A stretch of DNA of 64,000 nucleotides from the IMG/VR virus record IMGVR_UViG_3300011337_000358; one strand, written 5' to 3'. The notes beneath the pieces are model-generated. The model made no database searches. It worked only from the letters and a program-made list of their open reading frames with translations, and was not told the DNA's origin. This document shows, piece after piece, positions 14,096 through 28,933 of this stretch (the first letter of the stretch is position 1; the number at the start of each line of letters is the position of its first letter). Both the position numbers and the translations under genes were made by a program. The DNA comes from a virus. Lineage: Duplodnaviria; Heunggongvirae; Uroviricota; Caudoviricetes.

Positions 14096-14096
14096 T

Positions 14097-14306
14097 ATGC
14101 CATATAAAAGCCGTATTAAAACATTAGAAGAATCACATAGATTAGTAGAAAATCAACTTTTTCAATTAGAAAAATCAAATGGTGATCCTGAAAAAATTAA
14201 AAAGTTGAGAGAGGCTAAGGAAAAGTATTTCACTGAATTACGTGCAATGAATCGGGCTCAATGGGATCATGACCATGAAACTGTAGATTTGAACGATGAC
14301 CGATGA
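14097..14306 (+). CDS. Hypothetical small coiled-coil protein
   Basis: ORF. Confidence 0.45.
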   Translation: MPYKSRIKTLEESHRLVENQLFQLEKSNGDPEKIKKLREAKEKYFTELRAMNRAQWDHDHETVDLNDDR

Positions 14307-14871
14307 TATTAAATTAATTCCCAATATACTAAAACCAGAGGTAGAGTGGGATATTAATAAACGAGTTATTGTTATTGATAACGCAATTAGCCCGGATATG
14401 TGTGATAGTATTATTAATTTTGCAACTGATAGAGTAGCAAAAGGAGTAAACAAATATCCACATGTATTTGGTATTAGTTTTCATTCATGTCTACTTCAGT
14501 TAGAACATGAAGTTCATCAATTGTTGCAACCAATATGGCAACAATCAATTAATCAATTGGGATTTGATATTGATTTCGTTGAACCATATGAAGTTAAAAA
14601 GTATACTTCTAAAGATTTCTTTGGTAAACACGTAGATAATTACTACAGTTTGACCAAAGACATAGACAGAAAGATAACAATGAGTGTACAATTGACTGAC
14701 AAATCAGAATATACTGGTGGTGAGCTATTAGTGTTAGGTAGAGACATGGGTGCTAAGTCTAAAGGTAGCGTCACTGTGTTTCCTAGCATTTTTTCACATG
14801 AAGTAAAACCCATTACTTTTGGTACACGATGGTCATTAATAAGTTGGGCTTGGGGCCCTTATTGGAAATAA
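14296..14871 (+). CDS. 2OG-Fe(II) oxygenase (prolyl-4-hydroxylase-like fold)
   Basis: HxD 'GKHVDNYY', a second His in 'FSHEVKPI' and a 2OG-binding Arg in 'TRWSLISW'. 'GGELLV' is typical. Confidence 0.65.
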   Translation: MTDDIKLIPNILKPEVEWDINKRVIVIDNAISPDMCDSIINFATDRVAKGVNKYPHVFGISFHSCLLQLEHEVHQLLQPIWQQSINQLGFDIDFVEPYEVKKYTSKDFFGKHVDNYYSLTKDIDRKITMSVQLTDKSEYTGGELLVLGRDMGAKSKGSVTVFPSIFSHEVKPITFGTRWSLISWAWGPYWK

Positions 14872-14872
14872 C

Positions 14873-15325
14873 ATGGAACAACATATTCAAGCAGAAACAG
14901 AAAAACGAGTACGCATTAAGCATCATGCAAAGCGTATGATTTTCGTAACATTTCAAAAAGAGGGTATTCATATGTACCCGGCGGCGGCAACAGATCCAGC
15001 ACTCGCAACGGGTGATGAATATGATGTTCGCTTTTTAGGAACTCCACATCGTCACATCTTTCACTTTAACGTGGCGATTGAAGTATTTCACAACGACAGG
15101 GATATTGAATTCATTCAATTTAAACGCTGGTTAGAGAATCTCTATAAAGGCGGTACACTTGAATTGAATTACAAGAGTTGTGAAATGATTAGTGATGACC
15201 TCTATGAAGTTATTGCTACTCGCTATCCCGATCGTAACATTGAGATTACCGTCAGTGAAGATGGTGAGAACGGTGCTACGATTTATTACAACACAATTAG
15301 ACCTTATCTTTCAACCGCTATTTAA
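14873..15325 (+). CDS. Hypothetical protein
   Basis: ORF. Confidence 0.5.
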   Translation: MEQHIQAETEKRVRIKHHAKRMIFVTFQKEGIHMYPAAATDPALATGDEYDVRFLGTPHRHIFHFNVAIEVFHNDRDIEFIQFKRWLENLYKGGTLELNYKSCEMISDDLYEVIATRYPDRNIEITVSEDGENGATIYYNTIRPYLSTAI

Positions 15326-15337
15326 AGGATTATCAAA

Positions 15338-15544
15338 ATGGCAAAACCAACATTTCAAACTAACCCACGTGTTCATCAAATATTTGAGGACTTGGAAAAG
15401 TATCTTGAATTCTGTCAAGAGTATGGATATAAGTATAATGAGGCAGACCTCTATGACCAACGCAGTTATGTGTTTCGTCAGTTTGCAAAATGCATGACAG
15501 GTAAGCCTGCAAAAAATCAATGGACAGAACACTCACGTCCATGA
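15338..15544 (+). CDS. Hypothetical small protein
   Basis: ORF with RBS. Confidence 0.45.
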   Translation: MAKPTFQTNPRVHQIFEDLEKYLEFCQEYGYKYNEADLYDQRSYVFRQFAKCMTGKPAKNQWTEHSRP

Positions 15545-16293
15545 AGATAGTATTAGTAACTGGTGGATTTGATCCATTACACAGCGGTCATATTGAATAT
15601 TTCAAAGCCGCAAAACAACTCGGTGACAAGTTAGTTGTCGGGGTAAACAGTGATGCATGGTTGGCTCGTAAAAAGGGCCAACCTTTTATGCCTAGCATTG
15701 AGCGTATGTCAATAATTGAAAATTTAAAAATGGTAGATCATTGTGTTATCTTTAATGATGATGATGGTTCTAGTATTGAAGCTATCAATAATGTAAAGAT
15801 GATGTATCCTGATTCTGAAATCATCTTTGCTAATGGAGGGGATAGAACATCAGCCAACATTCCAGAAATGATCTTTGATGATGTAGAATTTGTTTTTGGT
15901 GTAGGTGGCGAGAATAAAATGAACAGTAGTTCATGGATACTACGTGAATGGAAACAACCTAAAACATTGCGGCAATGGGGTTATTATCGTATACTACATG
16001 ATGTGCCCGGGACTAAAGTAAAAGAACTAACAGTAGAATCTGGAAAGAGTTTGAGTTTACAACGACACAAACATAGAGCAGAATACTGGCATGTATCAGA
16101 GGGAAGATGTGCAGTAGAACAAAGAATGCCTAATGGCTATCAACTACCTACTCTAGAATTAGATACACTAAGTCAAATAGTTATTCCTATGAATGATTGG
16201 CATAGGCTATACAATCCGTTTGATGTCCCATGTAGAATTATTGAAGTTCAATATGGTACTATGTGCGAAGAAGAAGATATAGAACGCAAATGA
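15541..16293 (+). CDS. Bifunctional nucleotidyltransferase (RfaE-domain-II / TagD-like HIGH cytidylyl/adenylyltransferase) fused to a C-terminal cupin domain
   Basis: 'VLVTGGFDPLHSGHIEYF' is the HxGH nucleotidyltransferase signature (compare RfaE 'GCFDILHAGHVSYL'). The C-terminal 'QRHKHRAEYWHVSEG' is a cupin G(X)5HXH(X)3-4E(X)6G motif. Confidence 0.7.
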   Translation: MKIVLVTGGFDPLHSGHIEYFKAAKQLGDKLVVGVNSDAWLARKKGQPFMPSIERMSIIENLKMVDHCVIFNDDDGSSIEAINNVKMMYPDSEIIFANGGDRTSANIPEMIFDDVEFVFGVGGENKMNSSSWILREWKQPKTLRQWGYYRILHDVPGTKVKELTVESGKSLSLQRHKHRAEYWHVSEGRCAVEQRMPNGYQLPTLELDTLSQIVIPMNDWHRLYNPFDVPCRIIEVQYGTMCEEEDIERK

Positions 16294-17018
16294 ATCGTGC
16301 TATCTGTGCCCCGTGCGGTGGTTTAATGAATCATGTCAGATGGTTAACATTAATGTCATCTGAATTTAAACTTCCTTTTAAAGGTAAGTTAGAATTTATG
16401 AAGGGTGTTTACGCTACCAACAGATCGCCATTTGTATGGTTAAAAAATGAATATTTTTATAGGGAACGACCTTTTATAAAGGATTTGGTATTTGGAACTC
16501 ATCACATTGAAGACTGCCTAACATTAGAAAGTCCTAGAAAAATTTTAATATTGGTTCCTTCCCCTGAATTAAGTTTCACCCATTATTTAAAGTTTAATCC
16601 ATCATTGAATGGATTATTAAAACTACGAATCAATCAGCCCTACCTTACAGTAGAAGATATAAAAAATCTGTATTTGCTTGGCATTTCGGATCACAATTAC
16701 CGTAATAAGTTGCATGATACCTCAACTAATGATATAATTACTTCAAATATTGATAAATTATATACTAATAGAGAATTAGATGTGGACACGTATCGTACTA
16801 TAACTGATTTTTTTGAGATATCAAATGAATACAACTTAGCAAATGAAGTTCACAATATGTGGTTTGATTTACAAGAACATGGTAAAAAATTAATGCTAAC
16901 ACTCTCAGAAAACGCAAAAGATGTAGAGAATTATTGGAGATTGAATCATATTGAAGCAATCAACCAATCTGATTATAATATTGCACTTAAACTTATTAAA
17001 GAGACATACGGAGAATAA
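16290..17018 (+). CDS. Hypothetical protein
   Basis: ORF; ATGA overlap. Confidence 0.5.
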   Translation: MNRAICAPCGGLMNHVRWLTLMSSEFKLPFKGKLEFMKGVYATNRSPFVWLKNEYFYRERPFIKDLVFGTHHIEDCLTLESPRKILILVPSPELSFTHYLKFNPSLNGLLKLRINQPYLTVEDIKNLYLLGISDHNYRNKLHDTSTNDIITSNIDKLYTNRELDVDTYRTITDFFEISNEYNLANEVHNMWFDLQEHGKKLMLTLSENAKDVENYWRLNHIEAINQSDYNIALKLIKETYGE

Positions 17019-18218
17019 ATGAAAACATTATATTATATGGGACTAGAACCCTACAAAGCACGTTACACTCTACAGTTACAAGAGTGGAATGAACGGGTCT
17101 TTAAACAACGTGGTATTAACTATGTCATTGTACCCGGTGAAACACTAACTAATGACCAAGCTATTGTAACTGGTCAAGTACTAGATGCACATGGTCGTAC
17201 ATACTTTGGTATGAGTCAACTTATGAATCTAGTTAAGATGATGAAGCAAGGTGAAGTAGGTGCAGGTGATATCGTATACTTTGAAGATATGTTTCAGCCG
17301 GGCATTGAGTCATTGCCATACATTATGAAACAGATTCCGATCACAAGTCGTCCTAAGATTTTTGTTCGCTGTTTAGCACAAAGTATTGACCCAGATGACT
17401 TTGTTCATGTCTGGGGTATGAGTGAATTCATGGGTCACTATGAGAAGATGGTTGATTCGTTTGTTGATGGTGTGCTTGCTAGTAACGAAGAAATGGTAAT
17501 GCACATGAAGATTGCGGGTTGGAAAGCTCCTATCTATAATATATCAGGTCTAGCATTTGGTAAAGATGAAGTTCGTAGTCGTATTAATAATAATATTAAA
17601 CCCTTTGATGAACGTAAAATGCGTATTGCTTTTAGTGCAAGATGGGACCAAGAGAAACAACCTGACTTCTACATGGATGTGATTGAAGAATTCTTTAATC
17701 GGTATGGTGAGAAGGATCGTCACGGTATATATCGTGGTGTAGAATTTTGTGTATTCAGTGGTAGCAAATTAAAAAGCAATAACGATAGTTATATGAAACG
17801 CACACACGACTTTCAAGGTCGTGGATTGTTGACAGTTTATGAAGACTTGGACAAGAATGCATATTATGAATTATTAAATGATACCAGAGTATTGTTTAAT
17901 TGTGCATTACAAGATTGGGTAAGTAATACAGTTAGTGAAGCAGATAGTTTGGGTTGTAATGTGTTGTATCCAGCATATCGCAGTTTTCCAGAAACGTTTG
18001 CAAACGACTATACAAGAATGTATGCGCCCTGGTCAGTTGAAGATGCGGCAATAAAGTTGTATAATATGTTACATCAGCCACATATAAATCAAGGAAAGAT
18101 TAGTGATTGGACTGATGGTACTATTGATAGAATCTGTGATATCTTAGAAGGTAAGGGACAACAATGGTTGCGTATGGACAAAGATTATCGCAAACATACT
18201 AGAGAAAATAAATACTAA
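17019..18218 (+). CDS. Hypothetical 399-aa protein; candidate (unsupported) glycosyltransferase by context and size
   Basis: Large ORF inside the sugar-metabolism cluster. No motif identified by eye. Confidence 0.5.
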   Translation: MKTLYYMGLEPYKARYTLQLQEWNERVFKQRGINYVIVPGETLTNDQAIVTGQVLDAHGRTYFGMSQLMNLVKMMKQGEVGAGDIVYFEDMFQPGIESLPYIMKQIPITSRPKIFVRCLAQSIDPDDFVHVWGMSEFMGHYEKMVDSFVDGVLASNEEMVMHMKIAGWKAPIYNISGLAFGKDEVRSRINNNIKPFDERKMRIAFSARWDQEKQPDFYMDVIEEFFNRYGEKDRHGIYRGVEFCVFSGSKLKSNNDSYMKRTHDFQGRGLLTVYEDLDKNAYYELLNDTRVLFNCALQDWVSNTVSEADSLGCNVLYPAYRSFPETFANDYTRMYAPWSVEDAAIKLYNMLHQPHINQGKISDWTDGTIDRICDILEGKGQQWLRMDKDYRKHTRENKY

Positions 18219-18230
18219 AAGGAGAAAATT

Positions 18231-18920
18231 ATGTTTGAAACAACTTATACAGATAATGTAAATTACCGTTCTGCTAGCGAAATTAACTCAGCAATGGGCC
18301 GTGTTTATGGTCACATGAGTCTAGCTGTCATTGTATCAATGTTAGTTAGCTATTTTGTAGGCTCTAGTCCAGAGTTACTACAATTCTTTTTTACAGGTGT
18401 ATTGAAATGGATTGTGATCTTTGCCCCATTAGCGGCAATATTTGGTGTTGCTATGGTCCTAGGTAACAACCCTAGTAAGGGCGTAGCACAACTATGTTTA
18501 CATGGATTTGCCGCACTAATGGGATTAAGTTTTGCTACAATCTTTGCTGTATTCAACATGGGTAGTATTGTAAGCTCATTTATGGGAGCAGCCATATTGT
18601 TTGGCGTTATGAGTGGCTATGGTTATTTTACTAAACAAAGTTTAGACAGTCTTGGCAAGTTTATGTTTGTTGGATTGATTGCAATAGTTATTGCCAGCAT
18701 TGTCAATATCTTTATCGGCAGTACCGTAATGCAAATGGTTATCAGTGCGTTGGCTATCATTATCTTTTTAGGATTGACTGCTTACGACACACAAAAGATT
18801 CGTGAAGAATTAAGTCTAGAAACCAGTGATAGTGCAGAAGTACGCGGTGCATTAACATTGTACATGGACTTCATTAATTTGTTTATTAACCTCTTACAAC
18901 TATTTGGTGATAGGAAATAA
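18231..18920 (+). CDS. Bax-inhibitor-1/YccA family membrane protein (FtsH modulator homolog)
   Basis: Seven-TM-like hydrophobic profile. C-terminal 'ALTLYMDFINLFINLLQLFG' matches the BI-1/YccA C-terminal signature. Strong RBS AAGGAGAAA. Confidence 0.7.
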   Translation: MFETTYTDNVNYRSASEINSAMGRVYGHMSLAVIVSMLVSYFVGSSPELLQFFFTGVLKWIVIFAPLAAIFGVAMVLGNNPSKGVAQLCLHGFAALMGLSFATIFAVFNMGSIVSSFMGAAILFGVMSGYGYFTKQSLDSLGKFMFVGLIAIVIASIVNIFIGSTVMQMVISALAIIIFLGLTAYDTQKIREELSLETSDSAEVRGALTLYMDFINLFINLLQLFGDRK

Positions 18921-18922
18921 TC

Positions 18923-19339
18923 ATGGCAACATGGATATTAAAAACACTGCACAAAAAGAGTGCATATGAAAGACAGCATTGGTACAAAGATGGTAAAGAA
19001 ATCATCCGTGAAGAAGGTTACCGTTGGGGCACATTTTACTGTGAAAGTGATGAGAAACCTGATATTGACCTAACTAATGATGATGGTTATGAAATTGGTC
19101 AAGATGAGTATGAGTGGGAGCTTGATAGCCTCGATGACGGTTGTTGGGCTGATTGGGAATTCCCCGATGACATGAGTGAAGAAGAACAAGAAGAAATTCA
19201 AAATGCTTGGGATGAAAATTATTTTGAAGGCATGGAAGAATTAGGTTGGAGTTGCGATGATACAGATTATATCTTGCAAGGTCCGTTAGAATTATCAGAT
19301 GAAGATGGTAATGTAGTAGGTTCTGGTGATACAGAATAA
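18923..19339 (+). CDS. Acidic Trp-rich protein, 'WEF.DD' family member 1 (DNA-mimic candidate)
   Basis: 'EYEWELDSLDDGCWADWEFPDDMSEEEQEEI' is paralogous to 19735-20220 and 50887-52254. Confidence 0.55.
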   Translation: MATWILKTLHKKSAYERQHWYKDGKEIIREEGYRWGTFYCESDEKPDIDLTNDDGYEIGQDEYEWELDSLDDGCWADWEFPDDMSEEEQEEIQNAWDENYFEGMEELGWSCDDTDYILQGPLELSDEDGNVVGSGDTE

Positions 19340-19362
19340 GTTCATTTCAAATAGGAGAAAAC

Positions 19363-19557
19363 ATGAGCGCACAAAATGATATCGAAACAAGTTTGGCAGC
19401 ATACAACGCTGAAAACGATAAGTTTAACAAAGGCAATGCAGCCGCAGGTACACGTGCCCGCAAAGCATTAGCAGAACTAGCTAAAGCAGTTAAGGCTCGC
19501 CGTAACGAAATTACAGCAGAAAAAGCCGCACGTGCTGAAGCAAAGGTAAAGGCTTAA
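19363..19557 (+). CDS. Small basic Ala/Lys-rich DNA-binding-like protein (histone H1/HU-tail-like)
   Basis: 'KARRNEITAEKAARAEAKVKA'; strong RBS AGGAGAAAAC. Confidence 0.5.
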   Translation: MSAQNDIETSLAAYNAENDKFNKGNAAAGTRARKALAELAKAVKARRNEITAEKAARAEAKVKA

Positions 19558-19558
19558 T

Positions 19559-19732
19559 ATGACCTGCAGAGGCTATGATAGCAGGGCAATTAAATTGCCA
19601 AAAGAGATAAAATGCAGAGCGGCAACTATTTTAGATAATCATCAGCGAGGTGAATTTATACGTAGTTGGGTAGCAATATATAAAGAGGCCGCACATTCAA
19701 GGGGCTCCAATAAAAAACATTCTAAGGATTAA
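19559..19732 (+). CDS. Hypothetical small protein (57 aa)
   Basis: ATG overlaps the upstream stop (TAATATG); below the 60-aa track cutoff. Confidence 0.3.
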   Translation: MTCRGYDSRAIKLPKEIKCRAATILDNHQRGEFIRSWVAIYKEAAHSRGSNKKHSKD

Positions 19733-19734
19733 TA

Positions 19735-20220
19735 ATGGCTAATGTCTACTGTATTAAACCACTAGAGAAGAAAAGTATTAGCTGGCGGGTAGAAATGTAC
19801 CGTGAGAATAGTGACGGATCTTTCAGTTGGTTTAATATGGAAGAATTATATCGTTGGGGTCAGGGTTTTATTGAAGAAGACCTTGATTGCAACCTGCCTT
19901 GGAAAGGTTCTAACTCTGCACATTGCAAAACAGATGCAGGTTGGGGATGTGAGTTTGAAGATTCTATCAGTATTGACTGGGAATTTTCAGACGATATCAC
20001 AGAATTGGAACAACAAGAAATTAAAGAATCATACTATGATGGTGGCGCGGCTTGGTTGTTTGACGGTGAACATGATTGGCAAACTGAAGATGATTATGTC
20101 ATAGTCTTGGCGCCCTTTAGTGTTGACTATGCTAGTGACAACGGTGATATAATCACTGAGAACGTAGAATTAAAAGAACGTCCACCATTAGACCCAAATG
20201 CGGCATGGCCTTTTTCTTAA
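19735..20220 (+). CDS. Acidic Trp-rich protein, 'WEF.DD' family member 2
   Basis: 'GWGCEFEDSISIDWEFSDDITELEQQEIKESY' is a paralog of 18923-19339. Confidence 0.55.
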   Translation: MANVYCIKPLEKKSISWRVEMYRENSDGSFSWFNMEELYRWGQGFIEEDLDCNLPWKGSNSAHCKTDAGWGCEFEDSISIDWEFSDDITELEQQEIKESYYDGGAAWLFDGEHDWQTEDDYVIVLAPFSVDYASDNGDIITENVELKERPPLDPNAAWPFS

Positions 20221-20304
20221 ACAAACACACACTAAGATAAATAAAGATGTAACACAAAGGTTACAAAATTTCAAAACAAAAACCATCACAAAGGAAGGTT
20301 ATCT

Positions 20305-20985
20305 ATGAGTTATAATAAAACAAAAACAGATCCAGAGTTGGGTCAACGAGTACACGAACATCTAGTTAAGATGGGTGTTGAAACTCCCACTAATCCAAAC
20401 AACTATGACCGTAAAGAAAAGATAGATCATATTGAAGCGCATTTTACACACATTATGCGTATCTTGGGTCTTGACTTAACAGACGATAGTTTGATTGAAA
20501 CCCCTAAGCGTGTTGCCAAGATGTATGTCAACGAAATCTTTTGGGGACTTGACTATGACGCATTCCCTAAATGTACAACAGTTGACAACAAGATGCAATA
20601 CAACGAAATGGTTGTAGAGCGTAATGTTAACGTTCAATCTAACTGCGAACATCATTTTGTAGTCATCGATGGACTAGCTACTGTAGCTTATGTCCCTAAA
20701 CAAAAAGTTCTAGGGCTTAGTAAGATAAACCGTATCGTAGAATATTTTAGCAAAAGGCCTCAAATCCAAGAGAGGTTAACAGAGCAAATTTTTCACACCT
20801 TACAGTTCATCCTTGAAACAGAAGATGTTGCAGTTATGATTGATGCACAACACTATTGTGTAAAATCACGTGGTGTAGAAGATACGGGATCTAGTACTGT
20901 TACTTGTCGTTTAGGTGGCGGTTTCAAATCAGATCCTGCGGCAAGACAAGAGTTTTTACAGATTGCTAACAAAGGTTGCAAATGA
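20305..20985 (+). CDS. folE: GTP cyclohydrolase I (FolE)
   Basis: 'QSNCEHHFVVIDG' matches FolE 'CEHHLVPF'. 'GLSKINRIVEYFSKRPQIQERLTEQI' matches the FolE C-terminal block. Confidence 0.9.
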   Translation: MSYNKTKTDPELGQRVHEHLVKMGVETPTNPNNYDRKEKIDHIEAHFTHIMRILGLDLTDDSLIETPKRVAKMYVNEIFWGLDYDAFPKCTTVDNKMQYNEMVVERNVNVQSNCEHHFVVIDGLATVAYVPKQKVLGLSKINRIVEYFSKRPQIQERLTEQIFHTLQFILETEDVAVMIDAQHYCVKSRGVEDTGSSTVTCRLGGGFKSDPAARQEFLQIANKGCK

Positions 20986-21113
20986 TTATTACAATATTAG
21001 TTACAATAGCAGTAATAATAGCTATTGTTATAATGATTGCTACGATGCCAAATGCTAGTAGATGTAACGGAGACTGCAATCAAGGTCGTAACTGTACTTG
21101 TAGGGAGCAATAA
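20982..21113 (+). CDS. Small hydrophobic Cys-rich membrane peptide (43 aa)
   Basis: 'MIITILVTIAVIIAIVIMIA…CNGDCNQGRNCTC'; ATGA-coupled to folE. Confidence 0.35.
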   Translation: MIITILVTIAVIIAIVIMIATMPNASRCNGDCNQGRNCTCREQ

Positions 21114-21331
21114 TGGCACTGATATATAAAGAAGTAGAAGTTGATATTGATCTGAGCGATTTTGATACTGACGAATTAGTTGAAGAATTGGAAAACCGTG
21201 GCTCAGGTGTTATGGACTACGATGACGGCAAGGAAGTACTACAGTCGATTTACGAAAAACGTAGACTTGGACAAGACTATCAGCAAGAACTAGACCAATT
21301 AATTTGGTTAGGATTAGGGAGAGTTGTATGA
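21113..21331 (+). CDS. Hypothetical small acidic protein
   Basis: ORF. Confidence 0.45.
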
Positions 21332-21522
21332 TGAAATTTAAATTAGGTGACATGGTTAAAAAAGTGTCTGGTTCACAATGGCATGGAAAAGTAGTTGGTA
21401 CATACTCAACTGAGTTAACGCCTGAAGGATATGCAGTTGAGAGTCATACAGAAAAAGGTTCTGTACAAATATACCCTGCAAAGGCTCTTGAGTTATGGGA
21501 GTTGAATAATGGGATTTCGTAA
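21328..21522 (+). CDS. Hypothetical small protein
   Basis: ORF with ATGA overlap. Confidence 0.45.
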
Positions 21523-21745
21523 ACAAATGGACTACAATGCAGTACATCATCAAATCTATATGAGTGGTGTAGAATTACATAGTAATTACAATGATGGTTA
21601 CAATCAGTTTGAAATCAAAAAAGATTTACATCGTATCAAGTGGTTGTTAGATGAGATTATGGCTGACAGCCCTACATTTGCAGGGGAAGACGAATTCTTA
21701 AAAGAACATGAACAAACTAAGATGTGGAGAACTCTTTCAAAATGA
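21509..21745 (+). CDS. Hypothetical small protein
   Basis: ORF. Confidence 0.45.
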
Positions 21746-22215
21746 TTTTCAATCACATTAAAAAACTCAAACAAGATGGAAAGAAGATAGGTATTACTTT
21801 TAGTACATTCGACCTACTTCACGCAGGTCATATTGCTATGTTAAGTGAAGCAAAAAATCATTGTGATTATCTTATTTGTGGATTACAAACTGACCCCACG
21901 ATTGATCGACCTGAAACAAAGAATAAACCCATTCAAAGTATCGTAGAACGACAGATTCAACTTGCGGCTTGCCGCTATGTCGATGAAGTTGTTGTTTATC
22001 AAACTGAACAGGACCTTATTGACTTGTTACTTATTCTACCACTAGATGTTCGCATTTTGGGTGTAGAGTATGCAGATAAAGACTTTACCGGAAGATATGA
22101 AGGTAGTGAGCGTGGCATTGAAATTGTATTCAATGGTCGTGACCACAGTTTCAGCAGTAGTAGTTTACGAAAACGGGTAGCTGATGCCCAGATTATTAAC
22201 GTTCTTAATAAATAA
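21742..22215 (+). CDS. Cytidylyltransferase-like nucleotidyltransferase (TagD / glycerol-3-phosphate cytidylyltransferase-like)
   Basis: 'GITFSTFDLLHAGHIAMLSEAK' matches TagD 'VITYGTFDLLHWGHIKLLERAK'. Confidence 0.75.
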   Translation: MIFNHIKKLKQDGKKIGITFSTFDLLHAGHIAMLSEAKNHCDYLICGLQTDPTIDRPETKNKPIQSIVERQIQLAACRYVDEVVVYQTEQDLIDLLLILPLDVRILGVEYADKDFTGRYEGSERGIEIVFNGRDHSFSSSSLRKRVADAQIINVLNK

Positions 22216-22243
22216 CTATAGCGGTCTTTGGACATCATCCCGC

Positions 22244-22271
22244 TTTACAAATTCTGCTGCCTATGCTATAA
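22244..22271 (+). promoter_or_regulatory. Promoter TTTACA-16-TATAAT for queD
   Basis: Hexamers. Confidence 0.5.
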
Positions 22272-22289
22272 TCAACATAGGAGAAATTC

Positions 22290-22772
22290 ATGGCAAACAA
22301 AAAATTCTTTTCAACAAAGACATACAGACAAATAGGTCCTGTCGCTTATCGTCAATGGCGTGCTGACAGTCATTGTAACTTAATTCATGGCTATGCTATG
22401 AGTTTTCACTTTGAGTTTGAGGCTGATACGTTAGACGCACGTAACTGGGTAACTGACTTCGGTGGATTACGACCTCTCAAAGATAAACTAGAAGAATGGT
22501 TTGACCATACATTACTAGTTGCACAAGATGACCCAATGCGTGAACATCTATTAGAACTAGGTCGTTTAAAGCTAGCTAAAATTACAGAAGTAGAACGTAC
22601 TGGGTGTGAAGGTATTTCTGACTTTTTATATGAATACATTAACACAATTTTTTTGCCTAACTGCGGTAGTGAAGAAGCTAAACGTGTATGGTGCTGTAGA
22701 GTAGAAGTCCGCGAGACTGATAGTAACATGGCAGGACGTAGTGGTCATAGGGAAGATAGAGAGTTTGAATAA
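22290..22772 (+). CDS. queD: QueD / 6-pyruvoyl-tetrahydropterin synthase family protein (CPH4 synthase-like), variant metal site
   Basis: 'HCNLIHGYAMSFHFEFE' matches QueD 'CGRLHGHSFMVRLE' (C-x3-H-G-[HY]). Own promoter TTTACA-16-TATAAT at 22244-22271. Confidence 0.7.
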   Translation: MANKKFFSTKTYRQIGPVAYRQWRADSHCNLIHGYAMSFHFEFEADTLDARNWVTDFGGLRPLKDKLEEWFDHTLLVAQDDPMREHLLELGRLKLAKITEVERTGCEGISDFLYEYINTIFLPNCGSEEAKRVWCCRVEVRETDSNMAGRSGHREDREFE

Positions 22773-23395
22773 TGTTAGAAACAATTTGCGATACATTAGT
22801 TGAAGCATATAAACGCAACTGGATTACCAGTCGTGATGGCAATGTAAGTATTCGTCATCATGATCGGGATCATTTTTACATCACACCCAGTGGTGTGCGT
22901 AAGCAGACAATGCAACCGGATCAGTTTAAGAAGATTCGTATTGTTGGTAGTATGTTATGGGAAGAGCAACCATACACTGATATCAGTGCTAATCTTAAAC
23001 CGTCAGGTGAGCTACCACTACACCTCGGACTACAGCGAAAAATGGGACAGCACAATAATGATGTTAGAGTAGTAGTACATTTACATCCCACATACTGTGT
23101 TGCCGCTATGCACCGCGGCATTGAGTTGAGTAGTCTGGCTAATGACTTTCCTGAACTCAGTCGCTATACTAGCGTGGCACCCAATGTGGGTGATGTGCCT
23201 CCTATTAGCCAGGAACTTGCAGACCGCTGTCATGAAAATTTGGGACTAGATAAGAATGGTACTATTGCTTATGACATTGTAGGTATCAAAGGTCACGGTG
23301 TGGTCGCTATAGATACTAGCCCATGGAGGGCTTTTGAACATATTGAACGATTAGAACATATTTGTCAAATCGTATTAGCATCAGGGAAATATTAA
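22772..23395 (+). CDS. Class II aldolase/adducin-family protein (fuculose-1-phosphate aldolase-like)
   Basis: 'GELPLHLGL' and 'VVHLHPTYCVAAM' match the class II aldolase metal-binding blocks. Confidence 0.55.
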   Translation: MLETICDTLVEAYKRNWITSRDGNVSIRHHDRDHFYITPSGVRKQTMQPDQFKKIRIVGSMLWEEQPYTDISANLKPSGELPLHLGLQRKMGQHNNDVRVVVHLHPTYCVAAMHRGIELSSLANDFPELSRYTSVAPNVGDVPPISQELADRCHENLGLDKNGTIAYDIVGIKGHGVVAIDTSPWRAFEHIERLEHICQIVLASGKY

Positions 23396-23396
23396 A

Positions 23397-23810
23397 ATGT
23401 TAGACTGTATAATTATAGGTGATAGCATTGCAGTTGGTACAGCTATGGCTCGTCCAGAGTGTGTAAGTTATTCAAAAGGCGGCTGGAACAGTTGGCAATG
23501 GAACAAGGATTACTTAGCCAAAGCCTCTGCTCAACCTGCTCAAACTATAATCATTAGTCTTGGAGCCAACGACCACAAGGGTGTTAAGACTGAGCTTGAG
23601 TTACGTAAAATGCGAGAAGCAGTTAAGGGCCAGCGTGTGTTTTGGATCGATCCAGGTCAAGACCGTAAACCTATTCCACACGATGCAATTATTCGCATTG
23701 CTAAAGAATATGGTGATACAGTATTGCCTAGGCCAAAGAATCATATGAGTGCTGACGGAGTACATCCAACTGGTCGAGGTTATAAGATTTTAGGAGAGAT
23801 GGCAAAATGA
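23397..23810 (+). CDS. SGNH/GDSL-family hydrolase (short)
   Basis: Block I 'IIGDSIAVG', block III 'GANDH' and block V 'DGVHPT'. Confidence 0.6.
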   Translation: MLDCIIIGDSIAVGTAMARPECVSYSKGGWNSWQWNKDYLAKASAQPAQTIIISLGANDHKGVKTELELRKMREAVKGQRVFWIDPGQDRKPIPHDAIIRIAKEYGDTVLPRPKNHMSADGVHPTGRGYKILGEMAK

Positions 23811-24442
23811 GTTATATTGTAGGATCATTACCTCCTATTAAGTGTTGGATAAAACGTGAATTTCTTTACAACTTTGAAAAAGGTCACGGAGAATTAGAAC
23901 CTGCCATATGGGTAAGTCTTAAAGCATTACGTGGACAAGTGTTTCGTATTGAATCATTATTACCCAATTACGGAGCACTCTACGATAAACTGCCCATTCA
24001 TGCCTATGTATGGCAAGACAACTACACAGGCAATCTACCTATAGATACTTTACAACTCTGGGACTGCATGGGTTATCGCTTTACTATCATTGAAAAAATA
24101 GGTTTACGTAATCTAGGCGTTAAGTTCTTGGGCAAAGATAAAGAATGGCATCACGGAACTTATTTATTTACAGTAGATTTTTGTGCTGATGGAATGGATG
24201 TAGATACAGGTTTTACTGAAGTAGCAGAAGAACACAAGTCGTTTAATTTTATTAGATTAGAAAATGGACAGTTTGCTTGTCAACCCAATAATCGATGTTT
24301 GTGGTACGACCAAAGTTTGATTTCAGGTACAGTGAAATTTCCAGACTTTAAAGCCGCACAGACCATATTTACAGTAGATGGTACTCGCAAGTGGAGTGCA
24401 GGAGATGATTGGTTTTATTCTATTGAGGAAAAAAATGAATAG
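23807..24442 (+). CDS. Hypothetical protein
   Basis: ORF. Confidence 0.5.
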   Translation: MSYIVGSLPPIKCWIKREFLYNFEKGHGELEPAIWVSLKALRGQVFRIESLLPNYGALYDKLPIHAYVWQDNYTGNLPIDTLQLWDCMGYRFTIIEKIGLRNLGVKFLGKDKEWHHGTYLFTVDFCADGMDVDTGFTEVAEEHKSFNFIRLENGQFACQPNNRCLWYDQSLISGTVKFPDFKAAQTIFTVDGTRKWSAGDDWFYSIEEKNE

Positions 24443-24626
24443 TTTAGAAAAAATATGGGCTAGAGCAACTGGTCATTTAATGGGTAACACTGATGATGAT
24501 AGACCCGATGTACCTATTCTTACTTTACGAGAAGCAAGAATTGCATTGTTCCTAAAAACTTTCTGGATTATACTACATGTGATAACATGTTGTTTCATCA
24601 TAGCAAATACATTACGTCATTGGTAA
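24435..24626 (+). CDS. Hypothetical small membrane protein
   Basis: C-terminal TM 'FWIILHVITCCFIIANTL'. Confidence 0.35.
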   Translation: MNSLEKIWARATGHLMGNTDDDRPDVPILTLREARIALFLKTFWIILHVITCCFIIANTLRHW

Positions 24627-24629
24627 AAT

Positions 24630-24827
24630 ATGAACAAAAAAATTACAGAACTATGGGAACAGGCCGCTCAACGAGATGACTTACTAGACGAAAAACGGTA
24701 TGAGCATTTTGCTGAATTATTAATTAGAGATTGTGCAAAACAAGTTAATCATCTGGCTAAACAAGGTGGCGGAACTTGGGGCGAAGTCATTCTAGAAAAC
24801 TACAATATAAGTGTATATAAAAAATGA
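24630..24827 (+). CDS. Hypothetical small protein
   Basis: ORF. Confidence 0.4.
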   Translation: MNKKITELWEQAAQRDDLLDEKRYEHFAELLIRDCAKQVNHLAKQGGGTWGEVILENYNISVYKK

Positions 24828-25672
24828 GTCATTTAAAAGTATCAGAATTATTTTACAGTATCCAGGGAGAAGGTCGCTATATGGGAGTGCCAAGTATTTT
24901 CCTAAGAACATATGGATGCAATTTTACATGCGGTGGCTTCGGTATGCCTAAGGGAGAAATGAGTAATGAGAGAGATGTTATCGCAATTAAAGCAGAAGAT
25001 TATACAGATTATAAATCCTTACCACTTGTCAGTACTGGATGTGATAGTTACGCATCTTGGGACCCTCGCTTTAAACATCTTAGTCCTGTTATCTCTACCG
25101 ATTCTATTGCTGACAGTATTATGGATATACTTCCTCACAAGCGTTGGATGGATGAACATCTTGTTATTACAGGTGGTGAACCTTTGCTTGGATGGCAAAG
25201 AGCGTATCCAGACTTACTTTCAAACGAGAAAATGAGAGCATTGAAAGAGATTACATTTGAAACTAATGGCACACAAGAACTAAGTAAAGACCTTACTAAC
25301 TATCTTCATCAATGGAAGATCAGCCGTGAAAATAACGCACTTACATTCAGTGTGAGTCCTAAACTTAGTATCAGCGGTGAGAAGTGGGAAGAAGCAATAT
25401 GTCCACAAGTTGTTCGTCAATATGAAAGTGTTGGCTTTGTATATCTTAAATTTGTTATTGCTACTAAAGAAGATGCGATTGAGGCAGATAAAGCAGTTAA
25501 AGAATTTCGTACAGCTGGATTCAGAGGTCCAATATACTTCATGCCATGCGGTGGTGTAGAAAGTATCTATAATTTAAATGCTAGAAATGTTGCTATTGAA
25601 GCAATGAATCGTGGCTATCGCTATAGTGATAGATTACAGGTGCCTCTATTTAAAAATGAATGGGGGACATAA
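24824..25672 (+). CDS. queE: QueE-family radical SAM 7-carboxy-7-deazaguanine synthase
   Basis: 'ELFYSIQGEGRYMGVPSIFLRTYGCN' matches QueE 'EMFQTLQGEGYFTGVPAIFIRLQGC'. The Cys cluster 'GCNFTCGG' is atypical. Confidence 0.8.
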   Translation: MSHLKVSELFYSIQGEGRYMGVPSIFLRTYGCNFTCGGFGMPKGEMSNERDVIAIKAEDYTDYKSLPLVSTGCDSYASWDPRFKHLSPVISTDSIADSIMDILPHKRWMDEHLVITGGEPLLGWQRAYPDLLSNEKMRALKEITFETNGTQELSKDLTNYLHQWKISRENNALTFSVSPKLSISGEKWEEAICPQVVRQYESVGFVYLKFVIATKEDAIEADKAVKEFRTAGFRGPIYFMPCGGVESIYNLNARNVAIEAMNRGYRYSDRLQVPLFKNEWGT

Positions 25673-25875
25673 TGACAGAAACAAAAAAACGCACAGTGGT
25701 AAGGATGCTTACCTATAGATTGACAGCATGGTTATTCACAATCTTTTGGACTTATCTGTTTACAGGTAATCTAGGTAACTCAGCCGGCTTTGCTACTGCA
25801 TTACATATATTATTAAGTATAGACTATTACATTCACGAACGCATTTGGTTGAGAATCAAATGGGGTAAGGAATAA
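25672..25875 (+). CDS. Hypothetical small membrane protein
   Basis: Two hydrophobic segments. Confidence 0.4.
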   Translation: MTETKKRTVVRMLTYRLTAWLFTIFWTYLFTGNLGNSAGFATALHILLSIDYYIHERIWLRIKWGKE

Positions 25876-25876
25876 T

Positions 25877-26101
25877 ATGCCATTAGATCAAGTCCAATCA
25901 TATGATTACTTTTATGACAAATTGATAGGTACTGAACTTAAGTTTACTTGGCTACCCCAAACTTGTGACATATCAGGTAAGCGTATTTGGTTAAAGTATG
26001 GGTATAGGATGACTAGGATGATTACTGGACCGGGCACACCTGTCTTTGAGTATAGATGGCACGATAAGAATACCCATATTATATGGAAACTAAAAAGGTA
26101 A
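25877..26101 (+). CDS. Hypothetical small protein
   Basis: ORF. Confidence 0.4.
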   Translation: MPLDQVQSYDYFYDKLIGTELKFTWLPQTCDISGKRIWLKYGYRMTRMITGPGTPVFEYRWHDKNTHIIWKLKR

Positions 26102-26105
26102 ATAT

Positions 26106-26285
26106 ATGTATGAATTAAGATATCTTGTCCGAAACGGTTGGGATGGACCTGAACAAGTGTTACAATATAGAACTCAACATGAAGTAACAGACTATAGTGG
26201 CACAGATCCTAAAACAGGTGGATTCATTAGAAAAATAGAATGGACTGAATGGAAGTATGTCCCCACCGTAGATGAAACAAAATGA
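26106..26285 (+). CDS. Hypothetical small protein (59 aa)
   Basis: ORF coupled to neighbours. Confidence 0.3.
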   Translation: MYELRYLVRNGWDGPEQVLQYRTQHEVTDYSGTDPKTGGFIRKIEWTEWKYVPTVDETK

Positions 26286-27631
26286 AATTATACGATAAAC
26301 GAATTGCTTTTTTGATTAGTGACCAACATTTTATACCGCATGGTGGTATAGGTAGTTTTGCTAAAGGCTTTACTGAGATGTGTGGTCGTATCGGGTGGAA
26401 GGTTGATATTATATTAGACAAAGCACCTACTAATTTATTCAGTGATTTAATTATTAGTCTAGGTGCTAACATTGTTTACCCTGATGAACCACTACGATAC
26501 AGTGACCATACTGCTACGTTTGCATTTAGCGATACTATCAACTTTGAAAAGATTATCAACTTCCGTAAAGCAATATTAAAAGCATTTGAAACAAATGTAT
26601 ACGACATGATTGTGTGTAATACACAAGAGGCAATGACTGCTAGTTATGCCATGACGGTTAACAAGTATATACCTGTTGTATTCTATACTCATTTGCACAG
26701 TATGATTTTTCGTGAAAGTCAAGGTAGTGATGTATTTTTAGACAGCTATCACAATTTCTATAACAAACATATGGAGTTTACTGATATCATTATAGGCACA
26801 CAAAGTCAAAAGAACATTGACGAACTAACTAAGTTTGGTGCAACTAACTGTCAGTTATTGCGTATGCCAATGAGTGAACGTGGTCTATTAGAACGATACA
26901 ATGGATCTAAGAAGGGTGTACTATTCATTGGACGATGGGAAGAAGGTAAGAACCCTGAAGCATATATTCGTGTAATGAAAGAATGTAAATTACCATGTAA
27001 GGTAATGACAAATAGTAACGGTGCAAAAAAGTTTGAGAAGGCATTCAGTGACGCAGGTATTACTGATTATGAAATCAAAGCCGGTATTACTGGACAAGAG
27101 AAAGTAGATTTTGTTCGTGGTGCTAATGTATTCTTTATGCCCAGCCTTCGTGAAAACTATCCATTTGCATTTTTAGAATGTCTTGGTCATATGCCTTGTG
27201 TTGTGCTTGATAATCAAGATTGGTCAGACAACTTTGAGCGAGAATACTATCATCAAGTTTCAATTGGTTCAGCAGCCGACATGATTAAAACATTGTATGG
27301 CACAAATCAATTATCTTCAGTATTAGACTATGTGAAACAATTAGATGATGAGGTAGCTCAAGGTTGGATTACATTCTTAGATAATTTTGCAGGCAAGCGT
27401 AGCAACACAAATGCCGCAAAGATTAATACATATGATACAGTTAAGTATAGTGATTATATCAAGGATTTAAATCGTACACATTTAGCACGTGAGGACTTTG
27501 AAAGCGTACTCGCAAACAAATATAAGTTTTTAAATGTCTGCTACACAGATAGTGACACTTACCTAAGCAAAGACCCAACATATAAACCAGTCGAGGAAGA
27601 AACAGCATTAAGTCTGTTTGAAGGATTATGA
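26282..27631 (+). CDS. GT-B glycosyltransferase, family 4-like
   Basis: N-terminal 'ISDQHFIPHGGIGSF' (GT4 N-domain) and C-terminal 'FMPSLRENYPFAFLECLGHMPCVV' (E-x7-E motif). Confidence 0.7.
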   Translation: MKLYDKRIAFLISDQHFIPHGGIGSFAKGFTEMCGRIGWKVDIILDKAPTNLFSDLIISLGANIVYPDEPLRYSDHTATFAFSDTINFEKIINFRKAILKAFETNVYDMIVCNTQEAMTASYAMTVNKYIPVVFYTHLHSMIFRESQGSDVFLDSYHNFYNKHMEFTDIIIGTQSQKNIDELTKFGATNCQLLRMPMSERGLLERYNGSKKGVLFIGRWEEGKNPEAYIRVMKECKLPCKVMTNSNGAKKFEKAFSDAGITDYEIKAGITGQEKVDFVRGANVFFMPSLRENYPFAFLECLGHMPCVVLDNQDWSDNFEREYYHQVSIGSAADMIKTLYGTNQLSSVLDYVKQLDDEVAQGWITFLDNFAGKRSNTNAAKINTYDTVKYSDYIKDLNRTHLAREDFESVLANKYKFLNVCYTDSDTYLSKDPTYKPVEEETALSLFEGL

Positions 27632-28458
27632 AAAAAGTTTTAATTACAGGTAACTCAGGTTACATTGGCAGTCATCTAAGTAAGATGTTAATGGATACAA
27701 TGAAATATGAAGTTCATGGATTAGATATCCGTGACCCGCAATATGCATTGAATAGATTTTATCGTCAAGATATCAATAGACAATTTTCATTAGATGAAGA
27801 ATTTGATGCAGTCATTCACTTAGCCGCATTAGTTAATGTAGGTGAAAGTGAACAGATACCCATTCAATATTATATCACTAACTTAAATGGCACAATGAAT
27901 GTCATTAACAAAGTAAAGACTAAAAACTTTATATTTGCAAGTACGGGTGCCGCAGTTGGTTGCGAAAGTGCTTATGGTATCAGTAAACGTGCCGCAGAAG
28001 ATGTAGTCAAAGAATACTGCACACATCACAATAAAAAAGATTATACTATCTTTAGATTTTATAATGTGATTGGTACTACCGTTGTTCCACCTACAAATCC
28101 AGATGGATTAATGTATAACTTAATGAAAGCACGTGAAACAGGTGAGTTTACTATCTTCGGTAATGACTATGACGTTAGTGATGACGGTACATGTGTGCGT
28201 GATTATGTACATGTGAATGAAATTTGTGACTCATTAGCACAGGCTATCGAAAAGCCTAGTAACCAAATTGAATCATTGGGTCACGGAGTGGGATGGACAG
28301 TTAAAGAGATTGTCGATGAGTTTCAAAAAGTCAATCACGTTGACTTTGAAGTAAAATACGGCCCAAGAAGAAAGGGTGATCTTGCTAGTTCTGTACTAGA
28401 AGATGTTTCACCCTATATGCGTAATCTATATACTATGGATGAGTTGCTTAAGGTTTAA
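27628..28458 (+). CDS. NAD-dependent epimerase/dehydratase (extended SDR; UDP-sugar 4-epimerase-like)
   Basis: Rossmann 'ITGNSGYIGSHL' and catalytic 'YGISK' (YxxxK). Confidence 0.75.
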   Translation: MKKVLITGNSGYIGSHLSKMLMDTMKYEVHGLDIRDPQYALNRFYRQDINRQFSLDEEFDAVIHLAALVNVGESEQIPIQYYITNLNGTMNVINKVKTKNFIFASTGAAVGCESAYGISKRAAEDVVKEYCTHHNKKDYTIFRFYNVIGTTVVPPTNPDGLMYNLMKARETGEFTIFGNDYDVSDDGTCVRDYVHVNEICDSLAQAIEKPSNQIESLGHGVGWTVKEIVDEFQKVNHVDFEVKYGPRRKGDLASSVLEDVSPYMRNLYTMDELLKV

Positions 28459-28459
28459 T

Positions 28460-28933
28460 TTATAGACCAATCTTGGGTGGATACATTGGGCCAGACTTTA
28501 TTCGTTCACCACCGTCAAAGTAACTAATTTCTACTGGTAATTCTTTCCAGCCTAATCTATGTGCAGCCATGATACGATGATTACCTTCGTTTACCCAGGC
28601 ACTGCCATCATAGGCCACATTGATAAAAGGTTTGTATTCTTCACTAGAGTGTGAATGTAATGGTAGCTTGCCGGTGTCCTTCATTATTTTCATAATTGCA
28701 ATAAGATCACCTTGACGCACATTTTGTTGTTCGTTTCGCATACCGGGTATTTGTCTTAGTAAGTTAACAGGAATTTCAACTTTTCTGACAGTAGCAGTTG
28801 TCTTTCCCATGTAGGGCAAACCATTACGATCAGGACTTTTTTGCTTGGCATACGCAATAGCATCGTTTAGCCATTCCTCATTAGGCACATCAACACTAAG
28901 TGTTCCTTCAGTTATAAATTCTTTTGCTCTCAC
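28460..28933 (-). CDS. ParB/sulfiredoxin-superfamily protein with T4-type capsid-targeting N-terminus
   Basis: 'GNHRIMAAHRLGWKELP' matches ParB 'GERRWRAAKLAGL'. N-terminus 'MRAKEFITE|G' resembles the T4 capsid-targeting sequence / gp21 cleavage site. Confidence 0.55.
   Translation of the reverse strand: MRAKEFITEGTLSVDVPNEEWLNDAIAYAKQKSPDRNGLPYMGKTTATVRKVEIPVNLLRQIPGMRNEQQNVRQGDLIAIMKIMKDTGKLPLHSHSSEEYKPFINVAYDGSAWVNEGNHRIMAAHRLGWKELPVEISYFDGGERIKSGPMYPPKIGL

Follow-up and report, generated by a model that had tools for sequence, protein, structure and literature searches.

We found that a 64,000-nucleotide (nt) stretch of viral DNA (the whole of which we call the window; IMG/VR record IMGVR_UViG_3300011337_000358, Caudoviricetes) contains, at 15541-28458, a hypervariable island within the replication module, in which two layers of genes are interleaved. 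The first layer appears to be a DpdL-type 7-deazaguanine cassette, comprising a divergent DpdA, DpdL, FolE, QueD and QueE, with a predicted 399-amino-acid (aa) glycosyltransferase, here X399, inside it; the second consists of two cytidylyltransferase-like enzymes, a cupin, a class II aldolase-family protein and a mini-SGNH protein, which are lineage-specific or rare. We favour the reading, at a probability of roughly 0.55, that the cassette specifies a 7-deazaguanine DNA modification with a glycosylation arm and lies in a hypervariable island together with loosely related sugar genes. A preliminary description had listed the sugar-type enzymes of this region, and all were found on the plus strand at or near the coordinates it gave, with domain matches that are strong and not due to chance and with the motifs GGFDPLHSGHIEYF, FDLLHAGHIAML, YGISK and E-x7-E. 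Thus, the observation is confirmed, and its interpretation holds in part. For X399, whose family stays with DpdL or DpdA across distant phages and also in bacterial islands, a nucleobase or DNA target has good support; for a second predicted glycosyltransferase (GT449) and the GalE-like short-chain dehydrogenase/reductase (SDR) that follows it, such a target is plausible. What we propose about function is inferred from gene association and predicted structure.

The composition of the first layer resembles that of the DpdL-type systems of Cui et al. (2023; PMC10516641), of which those of phages ACP17 and phiST are closest, and which have FolE, QueD, QueE, DpdL and a distant tRNA-guanine transglycosylase (TGT)-like DpdA in common with the window. 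Those systems lack QueC, and none was found within the 64-kb window, where the sole PP-loop protein (7709-8323) is TilS-like by Pfam. We counted conservation in 23 loci with full 10-kb flanks, out of 80 related loci (the close relatives), and in 57 IMG/VR viral contigs with an X399 homolog (the diverse loci). FolE (60% identity to ACP17 FolE) and DpdL (57% identity to ACP17 gp125) are present in 23 of 23 close relatives, QueD (71% identity to ACP17 gp119) in 22 and QueE (47% identity to that of Synechococcus phage BUCT-ZZ01) in 20. The signature of DpdL is LxxxHRHxF, replacing the CxxxHGH of the QueD-like T-fold protein (PMC10516641), and the window protein matches it; ACP17 gp125 is probably the dpdL product of Cui et al., as indicated by an LGSPHRHLF motif and by where its gene lies in the cluster. 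The zinc motif of QueD reads C-x3-H-G-Y, not the canonical C-x3-H-G-H, and does so also in ACP17 gp119 and in BUCT-ZZ01 QueD. In two further phages, Vibrio phage Bakedbeans (gp176, 383 aa; L092, 9221-10372) and Chryseobacterium phage MA9V-3 (293 aa; L097, 9395-10276), DpdL is the C-terminal part of a longer protein, which suggests fusion to a further N-terminal domain.

The preliminary description had placed these sugar genes together with dpdA and queDE. QueD and QueE are indeed interleaved with them, while the DpdA candidate (DpdA517) lies outside the interval, at 12542-14095. DpdA517 gave no match in Pfam (including the TGT family PF01702), NCBIfam, PHROG or PDB sequences, even with a family profile, and a tblastn search of the window with the BUCT-ZZ01 DpdA likewise gave none; the protein was located solely through its DSGGFQ motif and then confirmed by profile comparison. 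Compared by hhalign with the DpdA3 group (ACP17 gp123 and the proteins of BUDD and BUCT-ZZ01), it gave a probability of 97.4% (E = 1e-11, 221 columns), with the catalytic DSGG motif and the HxLG and SxDS motifs all aligned. DpdA517 is kept in 23 of 23 close relatives and belongs to a branch, common to PA5oct gp168 and Phosso, that is separate from DpdA3 and linked to it by profile comparison only.

The open reading frame (ORF) that encodes X399 had been put forward as a candidate second transferase, with structure prediction proposed for it and for GT449, and AlphaFold2 (AF2) models built on metagenomic homologs predict that both are GT-B enzymes of GT4 type, with retaining enzymes of this type as their best PDB matches. 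The X399 model (mean predicted local distance difference test score, pLDDT, 73) has BshA, PimB', MshA and OtsA as its top Foldseek matches in the PDB (probability 1.00, E down to 8e-10), and its best viral structural matches are a 370-aa phage protein (A0A889IQ48) and ACP17 gp124. Sequence searches of Pfam, PHROG, NCBIfam and the PDB with X399 gave no match (Glycos_transf_1 and Glyco_trans_1_4 were not reached), and precomputed PF00534 matches exist on a minority of close homologs. In an alignment of seven lineages (21-37% identity), R..EK.P and the second Glu of E-x7-E are invariant, a family-specific N-terminal motif, E-x4-RYT, is kept throughout, and the first position of E-x7-E varies, with E in five lineages and D in those of the window and BUCT-ZZ01. 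Thus, X399 is predicted to be a GT4-like GT-B glycosyltransferase that retains the R/K donor-binding and Glu residues. All 23 close relatives keep it. Clustered at 50% identity, its family falls into about 800 groups, of which 185 reach E = 1e-30 or better; at 90% identity, over 8,000 clusters lie close to the window protein.

The association of X399 with the deazaguanine genes extends well beyond this lineage. In BUCT-ZZ01, the nearest cultured phage, the genes for QueE, a phosphoribosyltransferase (PRTase), an unknown protein, QueD, FolE, a GT449 homolog (44% identity), DpdA, DpdL and an X399 homolog (63% identity) are contiguous in that order. The X399 homolog of ACP17 (gp124) is encoded between DpdA3 (gp123) and DpdL (gp125); those of Xanthomonas phages BUDD and X1 adjoin DpdA and DpdL, that of Burkholderia phage BCSR5 is about 3 kb from DpdL, and that of Sinorhizobium phage Phosso comes immediately after DpdL. 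Pseudomonas jumbo phage PA5oct (L088, record 222985-228313) encodes a DpdA-like protein (gp168), the glycosyltransferase (gp167), DpdL (gp166), a truncated SDR (gp164), a PRTase (gp163) and QueE (gp162); this gp168-gp162 cassette is compact, and its DpdL has HFH where HRH is expected. Gene order is shuffled among ACP17, BUDD, BUCT-ZZ01, BCSR5, Phosso and PA5oct, with the adjacency of X399 to DpdA or DpdL retained, and DpdL is present in every cultured phage with a clear X399-family member. The converse fails, since six DpdL lineages, phiST among them, have no X399-type glycosyltransferase near DpdL. The published DpdL scheme has no glycosyltransferase, whereas here and in ACP17 (gp124) a GT-B enzyme is encoded between or beside dpdA and dpdL; by its gene content, the cassette appears to belong to the DpdL-type deazaguanine systems, with an extra conserved glycosyltransferase beyond that scheme. 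A distant X399 relative in Xanthomonas phage PhiXhv-12 (L098, record 120910-124144) has no dpd genes around it; it adjoins GlmS and an LmbE-type deacetylase and may be part of a separate amino-sugar modification system.

A similar linkage was seen in the 57 diverse loci, which were gathered with a three-sequence alignment (single distant proteins returned their own contig or nothing) and in which the glycosyltransferase is 31-49% identical to ACP17 gp124, ACP17's own contig excepted. DpdL lies within 10 kb of X399 in 49 of the 57, and in 32 of these 49 within 500 bp; most of the misses are loci in which X399 is near a contig end. FolE was found in 41, QueE in 40, DpdA of either type in 37 and the PRTase in 21, in at least eight gene arrangements, and de novo clustering of the neighbouring ORFs gave DpdL, FolE, QueE, PolB and DpdA as top companions.

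A scan of 185,579 species genomes yielded three bacterial loci, in Azospirillum isscasi (L158), the Rhizobiales isolate AFS055504 (L159) and Ochrobactrum sp. MYb379 (L160), which share the order of an unknown 853-aa protein, a DpdA-like protein, a Vut_1/YhhQ-like transporter and an X399 homolog. The Vut_1 Pfam match of the membrane protein is just over the cut-off; YhhQ is the family of the preQ0/preQ1 precursor transporter. An integrase is nearby in two of the three (L158 and L160), and GmrSD and Mrr endonuclease genes are near the L160 island. None of DpdL, FolE and QueE is present in these islands, which have the glycosyltransferase with the DpdA-like protein and the transporter; therefore, X399 tracks DpdA and deazapurine supply, not DpdL specifically. 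The three loci look like Dpd-like DNA-marking islands of new composition.

GT449 is likewise a predicted GT4-type GT-B glycosyltransferase, with an AF2 model of pLDDT 81 that matches MshA, BshA, sucrose-phosphate synthase (SPS) and PimA in Foldseek (probability 1.00, E about 1e-10) and with canonical motifs, GRWEEGKNP (GR...KG) and the E-x7-E in RENYPFAFLE; its Pfam GT1 scores, 20-21 bits, are under the cut-offs of 26-27. The start of the SDR gene overlaps the GT449 stop by 4 nt, and the SDR scores 158 bits against the GalE model TIGR01179, which is under the cut-off. The SDR is in 21 and GT449 in 16 of the 23 close relatives, compared to 5 and 3 of the 57 diverse loci. GT449 adjoins FolE or DpdA in three phages, of which one is BUCT-ZZ01 and two are metagenomic: FolE and DpdA flank its homolog in BUCT-ZZ01 and L140, and the order in L139 is DpdA-DpdL-X399-FolE-SDR-GT449. 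In all three diverse loci with GT449 (L139, L140 and L152) it is beside an SDR or a cupin.

Table 1. Features of the window in and around the 15541-28458 island, with the evidence for each
Feature	Position	Strand	Evidence
DpdA517, candidate divergent DpdA-type DNA transglycosylase, 517 aa	12542-14095	+	DSGGFQ motif; profile comparison
2-Oxoglutarate (2OG)-Fe(II) oxygenase, accessory insertion	14296-14871	+	PF13640, E = 2e-12
DpdL, QueD paralog, proposed 7-carboxy-7-deazaguanine (CDG) decarboxylase	14873-15325	+	LGTPHRHIF
Cytidylyltransferase-like nucleotidyltransferase (NTase) fused to phosphomannose isomerase (PMI)-type cupin	15520/15541-16293	+	PF01467, E = 9e-15; PF01050, E = 4e-21
251-aa ORF between NTase-cupin and X399	16263-17018	+	no Pfam, PHROG or NCBIfam match
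X399, predicted GT4-like GT-B glycosyltransferase, 399 aa	17019-18218	+	AF2 model; Foldseek
Bax1-I/YccA-like membrane protein, unrelated insertion	18231-18920	+	PF01027, E = 6e-53
FolE, GTP cyclohydrolase I	20305-20985	+	PF01227, E = 2e-61
NT163, second cytidylyltransferase-like NTase, 163 aa	21724-22215	+	PF01467, E = 2e-12
Sigma-70-like promoter match 5' of QueD	22244-22272	+	TTTACA-17-TATAAT with TG, 11/12 positions, intergenic; consensus match only
QueD, 6-carboxytetrahydropterin (CPH4) synthase-like	22290-22772	+	PF01242, E = 3e-15
Class II aldolase/epimerase/dehydratase-family protein, accessory	22772-23395	+	PF00596, E = 4e-30
Mini SGNH/GDSL-like hydrolase, 137 aa, accessory	23397-23810	+	GDS (GDSIAVG) and DxxH (DGVHPT) blocks
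u211, 211-aa protein (PHROG 3704)	23807-24442	+	phrog_3704, E = 5e-75; no Pfam match
QueE, CDG synthase, radical S-adenosylmethionine (SAM)	24824-25672	+	phrog_2076, E = 5e-53
GT449, predicted GT4 glycosyltransferase, 449 aa	26282-27631	+	AF2 model; motifs
GalE-like SDR, nucleotide-sugar 4-epimerase-like	27628-28458	+	PF01370, E = 5e-32; YGISK

In the mechanism that we favour, FolE, QueD and QueE would convert GTP to CDG, as the known families and Cui et al. (2023; PMC10516641) suggest, DpdL would convert CDG to 7-deazaguanine (DG), as Cui et al. predicted, and the divergent DpdA would swap the DpdL product for guanine in phage DNA. The new element is X399, which would transfer a sugar from a nucleoside diphosphate (NDP)-sugar to deazaguanine, whether this is still a free base or has entered the DNA, with a common host NDP-sugar as the presumed donor in most phages. 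GT449 could add or vary a second sugar in this lineage, after the GalE-like SDR, whose gene overlaps that of GT449, has epimerised the donor. Donors or glycan might be tailored by the two NTases and by the cupin, aldolase-family and SGNH proteins, which lie outside the core, and the PRTase of the 21 diverse loci may serve to salvage the guanine that is released or to produce a deazapurine nucleotide. Candidate acceptors would be N2, C7 or the carboxylate, of which N2 has a natural-product precedent in HuiG, whereas C7 and the CDG carboxylate are unprecedented.

Several published results bear on this mechanism. The DNA of PA5oct, which carries the cassette, is reported to contain a modified G and to resist several enzymes that cut at G-containing sites (PMC12191111, preprint), and we count this as support. 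When DpdL and DpdA3 were co-expressed alone in E. coli, no 2'-deoxy-7-deazaguanine (dDG) was obtained, and the authors raised the possibility that the reaction requires further enzymes (PMC10516641). A chemical precedent for a glycosylated deazaguanine comes from the GT4-type HuiG, for which attachment of N-acetylglucosamine to the 2-amino group of a 7-deazaguanine base has been proposed (PMC7439116; bioRxiv 10.64898/2026.04.15.718813). The huimycin/dapiramicin clusters combine FolE, QueD and QueE with a GT4-family glycosyltransferase, as here (HuiG; PMC7439116); they differ in that huimycin is an actinomycete secondary metabolite derived from preQ0 (with QueC and an O-methyltransferase), a free base with no DpdA and no DNA insertion. 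Our literature search, of incomplete coverage, returned no paper on a glycosyltransferase in dpdA/dpdL clusters or on glycosylated deazaguanine in DNA.

Other observations count against a glycosylation arm. The phage phiST is the only member of the DpdL systems with measured dDG, it has DpdL and DpdA3, and its DNA contains plain dDG, yet no X399 homolog was found there, either within 10 kb of DpdL or by tblastn with two family members over the phiST records; therefore, the glycosyltransferase is not required for the basic modification. Moreover, 7-deazaguanine has no hydroxyl, such that the usual logic of O-glycosylation in phage DNA does not apply and the acceptor is speculative, and no oxygenase that would make an O-acceptor beside X399 was among the top companion families of the 57 loci. 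The window X399 itself reads D-x7-E instead of E-x7-E, both glycosyltransferase models have low-confidence loops, and proteins of the X399 family are acidic (isoelectric point, pI, 5.4-6.2), which speaks little for DNA binding; since the DpdAs here have a similar pI, we set it aside as an uninformative test of such binding. Finally, all of the linkage evidence is guilt by association.

The preliminary description had read the sugar-type genes as one module, whose enzymes looked like a complete route from making an NDP-sugar through epimerisation to transfer. Neither part of that claim is supported. The genes are interspersed with FolE, QueD, QueE, DpdL and unrelated insertions (the Bax1-I membrane protein and unknown ORFs), and no sugar kinase, haloacid dehalogenase (HAD) phosphatase, SIS isomerase or mutase turned up in the proteins that we scanned between 11 and 34 kb, only the PMI-type cupin and the class II aldolase-family protein. 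Both NTases reach only generic family models (TIGR00125, PF01467) and no substrate-class equivalog, with NCBIfam scores of 82-83 bits for RfaE domain II (cut-off 181) and 48-58 for TagD (cut-off 165). The NTase-cupin carries the GGFDPLHSGHIEYF motif, and its start at 15541 overlaps the upstream ORF stop as ATGA; its closest PDB sequences are ethanolamine-phosphate cytidylyltransferase (ECT), an RfaE-like protein and TagD. It is found in 10 of 23 close relatives and in 1 of 57 diverse loci (L152), there as a stand-alone cupin that has no NTase domain and adjoins the X399 homolog. NT163 carries FDLLHAGHIAML, has ECT (2e-19) and TagD (3e-13) as its best PDB sequence matches, and is in 19 of 23 close relatives and 0 of 57 diverse loci. 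The closest solved relatives of the NTases are thus alcohol-phosphate cytidylyltransferases (ECT, TagD) and RfaE-domain-II-like enzymes. The aldolase-family protein, for which no NCBIfam equivalog reached its cut-off, is in 1 of 23 close relatives and 0 of 57 diverse loci. The proposed SGNH esterase has readable GDS and DxxH blocks; at only 137 aa, it scores 32.5 bits against PF13472, just short of the cut-off of 32.9, and its gene is in 0 of the 80 related loci (0 of 23 with full flanks). Thus, the aldolase, SGNH and NTase-cupin genes are accessory, poorly conserved even in close relatives.

From this set of genes, one could argue that the NTases, SDR, aldolase, SGNH protein, cupin and possibly GT449 are auxiliary and serve to remodel the host lipopolysaccharide or capsule or to make CDP-alcohols, the queuosine-type neighbours being incidental, and we regard this as unlikely. 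It has a model in the islands of marine T4-like cyanophages such as S-SM2 and S-SSM7, in which, as here, variable regions near replication genes hold NTases, glycosyltransferases, nucleotide-sugar epimerases and a class II aldolase-family protein. The NTases there share about 50% identity with the N-terminal half of 15541-16293; the S-SM2 island also has phosphoheptose isomerase and no dpd genes, and the S-SSM7 NTase immediately follows gp43. It is likewise favoured by the hypervariability of the region, with its many unrelated genes (149 accessory families in the relatives), by the rarity of the aldolase, SGNH and NTase-cupin genes in relatives, by the absence of NT163 and the aldolase from the diverse loci, with a stand-alone cupin in only one, and by the fact that the closest solved NTase relatives make CDP-ethanolamine or CDP-glycerol. 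However, the cyanophage sugar islands lack dpdA, dpdL, queE and the X399 family, and this explanation leaves unaccounted for X399, whose linkage to DpdA and DpdL is near universal. Given that linkage, the host-envelope target that had been offered as an alternative is, for X399, far less supported than a nucleobase or nucleic-acid target. Nor does the auxiliary-gene explanation fit well with the placement of GT449, which has FolE and DpdA on either side in BUCT-ZZ01 and L140 and immediately follows FolE-SDR in L139, with the retention of NT163 and the SDR in most close relatives, or with the successive overlaps of 1-4 nt (1 nt between the QueD stop and the aldolase start) through QueD, the aldolase, SGNH and u211, which suggest co-expression.

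Another alternative, and one that we think quite unlikely, is that X399 acts in the deazaguanine pathway with no DNA glycosylation, either by glycosylating a free deazapurine or pterin, for which huimycin and the biopterin glucoside of cyanobacteria would be the models, or as a non-transferring helper of DpdA. Consistent with this, HuiG is proposed to act on the free deazapurine base, the X399 family has an acidic pI, and DpdA3 alone was inactive in E. coli (PMC10516641). Tetrahydrobiopterin glucosyltransferases (BGluT) are at ranks 36 and 48 of the GT449 fold matches. Biopterin synthesis opens with FolE and an enzyme of the 6-pyruvoyl-tetrahydropterin synthase family, which carry out its first two steps. 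In contrast, the conserved donor-binding and catalytic residues speak against a purely structural role, the BGluT fold matches are no better than generic GT4 matches, and the bacterial islands have no FolE or QueD, making a pterin acceptor unlikely there. We rejected a pterin glucoside as the main reading, based on these islands and on the co-occurrence of QueE, DpdA and DpdL.

The DNA glycosylations of T4 (glucosyl-5-hydroxymethylcytosine) and of RB69 and DLP3 (arabinosyl-5-hydroxycytosine; PMC13326640) likewise involve several GT4-like GT-B transferases encoded near base-synthesis and nucleotide-sugar genes, and in them the glycan is built stepwise, as proposed here. The RB69 and DLP3 transferases have the same structural neighbours as X399 and GT449; the PDB entries in question are generic GT4 neighbours. 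In those phages a thymidylate-synthase homolog makes a hydroxylated pyrimidine, whereas here the linked pathway leads to a deazapurine with no obvious hydroxyl, and the arabinose-5-phosphate isomerase, kinase and HAD phosphatase of the RB69/DLP3 set were not found here. We consider it very improbable that the window glycosyltransferases act on 5-hydroxymethylcytosine, 5-hydroxycytosine or 5-hydroxymethyluracil made by a synthase encoded outside the 64-kb window, with deazaguanine as an independent second modification. In favour of this, the characterised phage DNA glycosylations in the literature that we consulted are all on such a hydroxyl (PMC13326640), the RB69 and DLP3 DNA arabinosyltransferases match the same PDB entries as X399 and GT449 (3mbo, 3c4q, 6kih, 2gej), and one relative has a thymidylate synthase. 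Against it, the scanned window proteins include no homolog of thymidylate synthase, no dCTPase and no additional dNMP kinase, no pyrimidine-modifying gene is among the conserved X399 companions in the 57 loci, and in the bacterial islands X399 is paired only with a DpdA-like gene and a transporter.

We also consider a wider claim, which we hold tentatively and at somewhat less than even odds: a large group of phages may carry glycosylated 7-deazaguanine in their DNA by means of a GT4-like partner of DpdA, and the same DpdA-glycosyltransferase pair, with a YhhQ-like transporter, may mark bacterial DNA in mobile islands, as a new Dpd-like system of self/non-self recognition. The phage group would include abundant freshwater T4-like phages, PA5oct, ACP17, Xanthomonas phages BUDD and X1 and a freshwater cyanophage. 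If so, this would be, as far as our literature search shows, the first sugar-bearing purine in DNA. To our knowledge, the 7-deazaguanine DNA bases (preQ0, preQ1, ADG, G+, mdPreQ1, fdPreQ1, DG and CDG) have small substituents only. A glycosyltransferase as a regular member of dpdA/dpdL cassettes would mean that DNA glycosylation also reaches a purine analogue, and its role could account for the failed reconstitution of ACP17 DpdA3 and DpdL in E. coli. Its product would, moreover, offer a definite candidate for what the modified G is in PA5oct-like therapeutic phages. With a family this large and abundant in freshwater metagenomes, such a modification would matter for work on the sequencing, restriction and defence systems of many environmental phages.

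In the window from 8.6 to 28.5 kb, real genes are on the plus strand only and densely packed, with intergenic gaps of at most 23 nt across 11425-19557 and several starts that overlap the preceding stop by 1-4 nt. A nucleotide search of the region against cultured phages gave no match. The 149 accessory families counted in the relatives include TctC, ferritin, SbtA, SAM synthetase and dihydrofolate reductase; per this census, the region is a general collecting site for auxiliary genes. Insertions of this kind in the window include the 2OG-Fe(II) oxygenase (1 of 23 full related loci), u211 (2 of 23), the Bax1-I gene directly after X399 (4 of 23; 11 of 80 relatives) and the 251-aa ORF (0 of 23), for which a PDB sequence search was likewise null. 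Promoter and terminator scans gave overall counts close to chance, from which two strong intergenic sigma-70 matches stand out: that before QueD (Table 1) and a perfect consensus, TTGACA-17-TATAAT, at 11352-11380, ahead of the block containing the DpdA-like gene.

We noted several other genes in passing. A small protein-kinase-like ORF (28930-29604, minus strand; PHROG 15752, E = 4e-11) is convergent with the SDR gene and occurs in 0 of 80 relatives; in the RB69/DLP3 system, kinase-fold enzymes act as sugar kinases. The TilS-like PP-loop ATPase (SGGVDS) and a class-I glutamine amidotransferase (4904-5479), both encoded upstream of the DNA polymerase, could constitute a split amidotransferase; a PP-loop (PAPS-reductase-like) gene adjoins FolE in BUDD. 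A TctC-family solute receptor is encoded at 3918-4907, and the same variable region in the relatives (L007-L086) holds genes for a bicarbonate transporter (Sbt_1), SAM synthetase, IMP dehydrogenase/GMP reductase and APS kinase; with this receptor and such varied transporter and metabolic genes, the label of cyanophage is not established for the lineage. The window phage also encodes a ferritin-like protein (965-1405), a 425-aa radical SAM protein (1398-2675), an Fe/Mn superoxide dismutase (29780-30334, minus strand), UvdE (32842-33909), ClpX (55790-56995) and ClpP (61210-61797).

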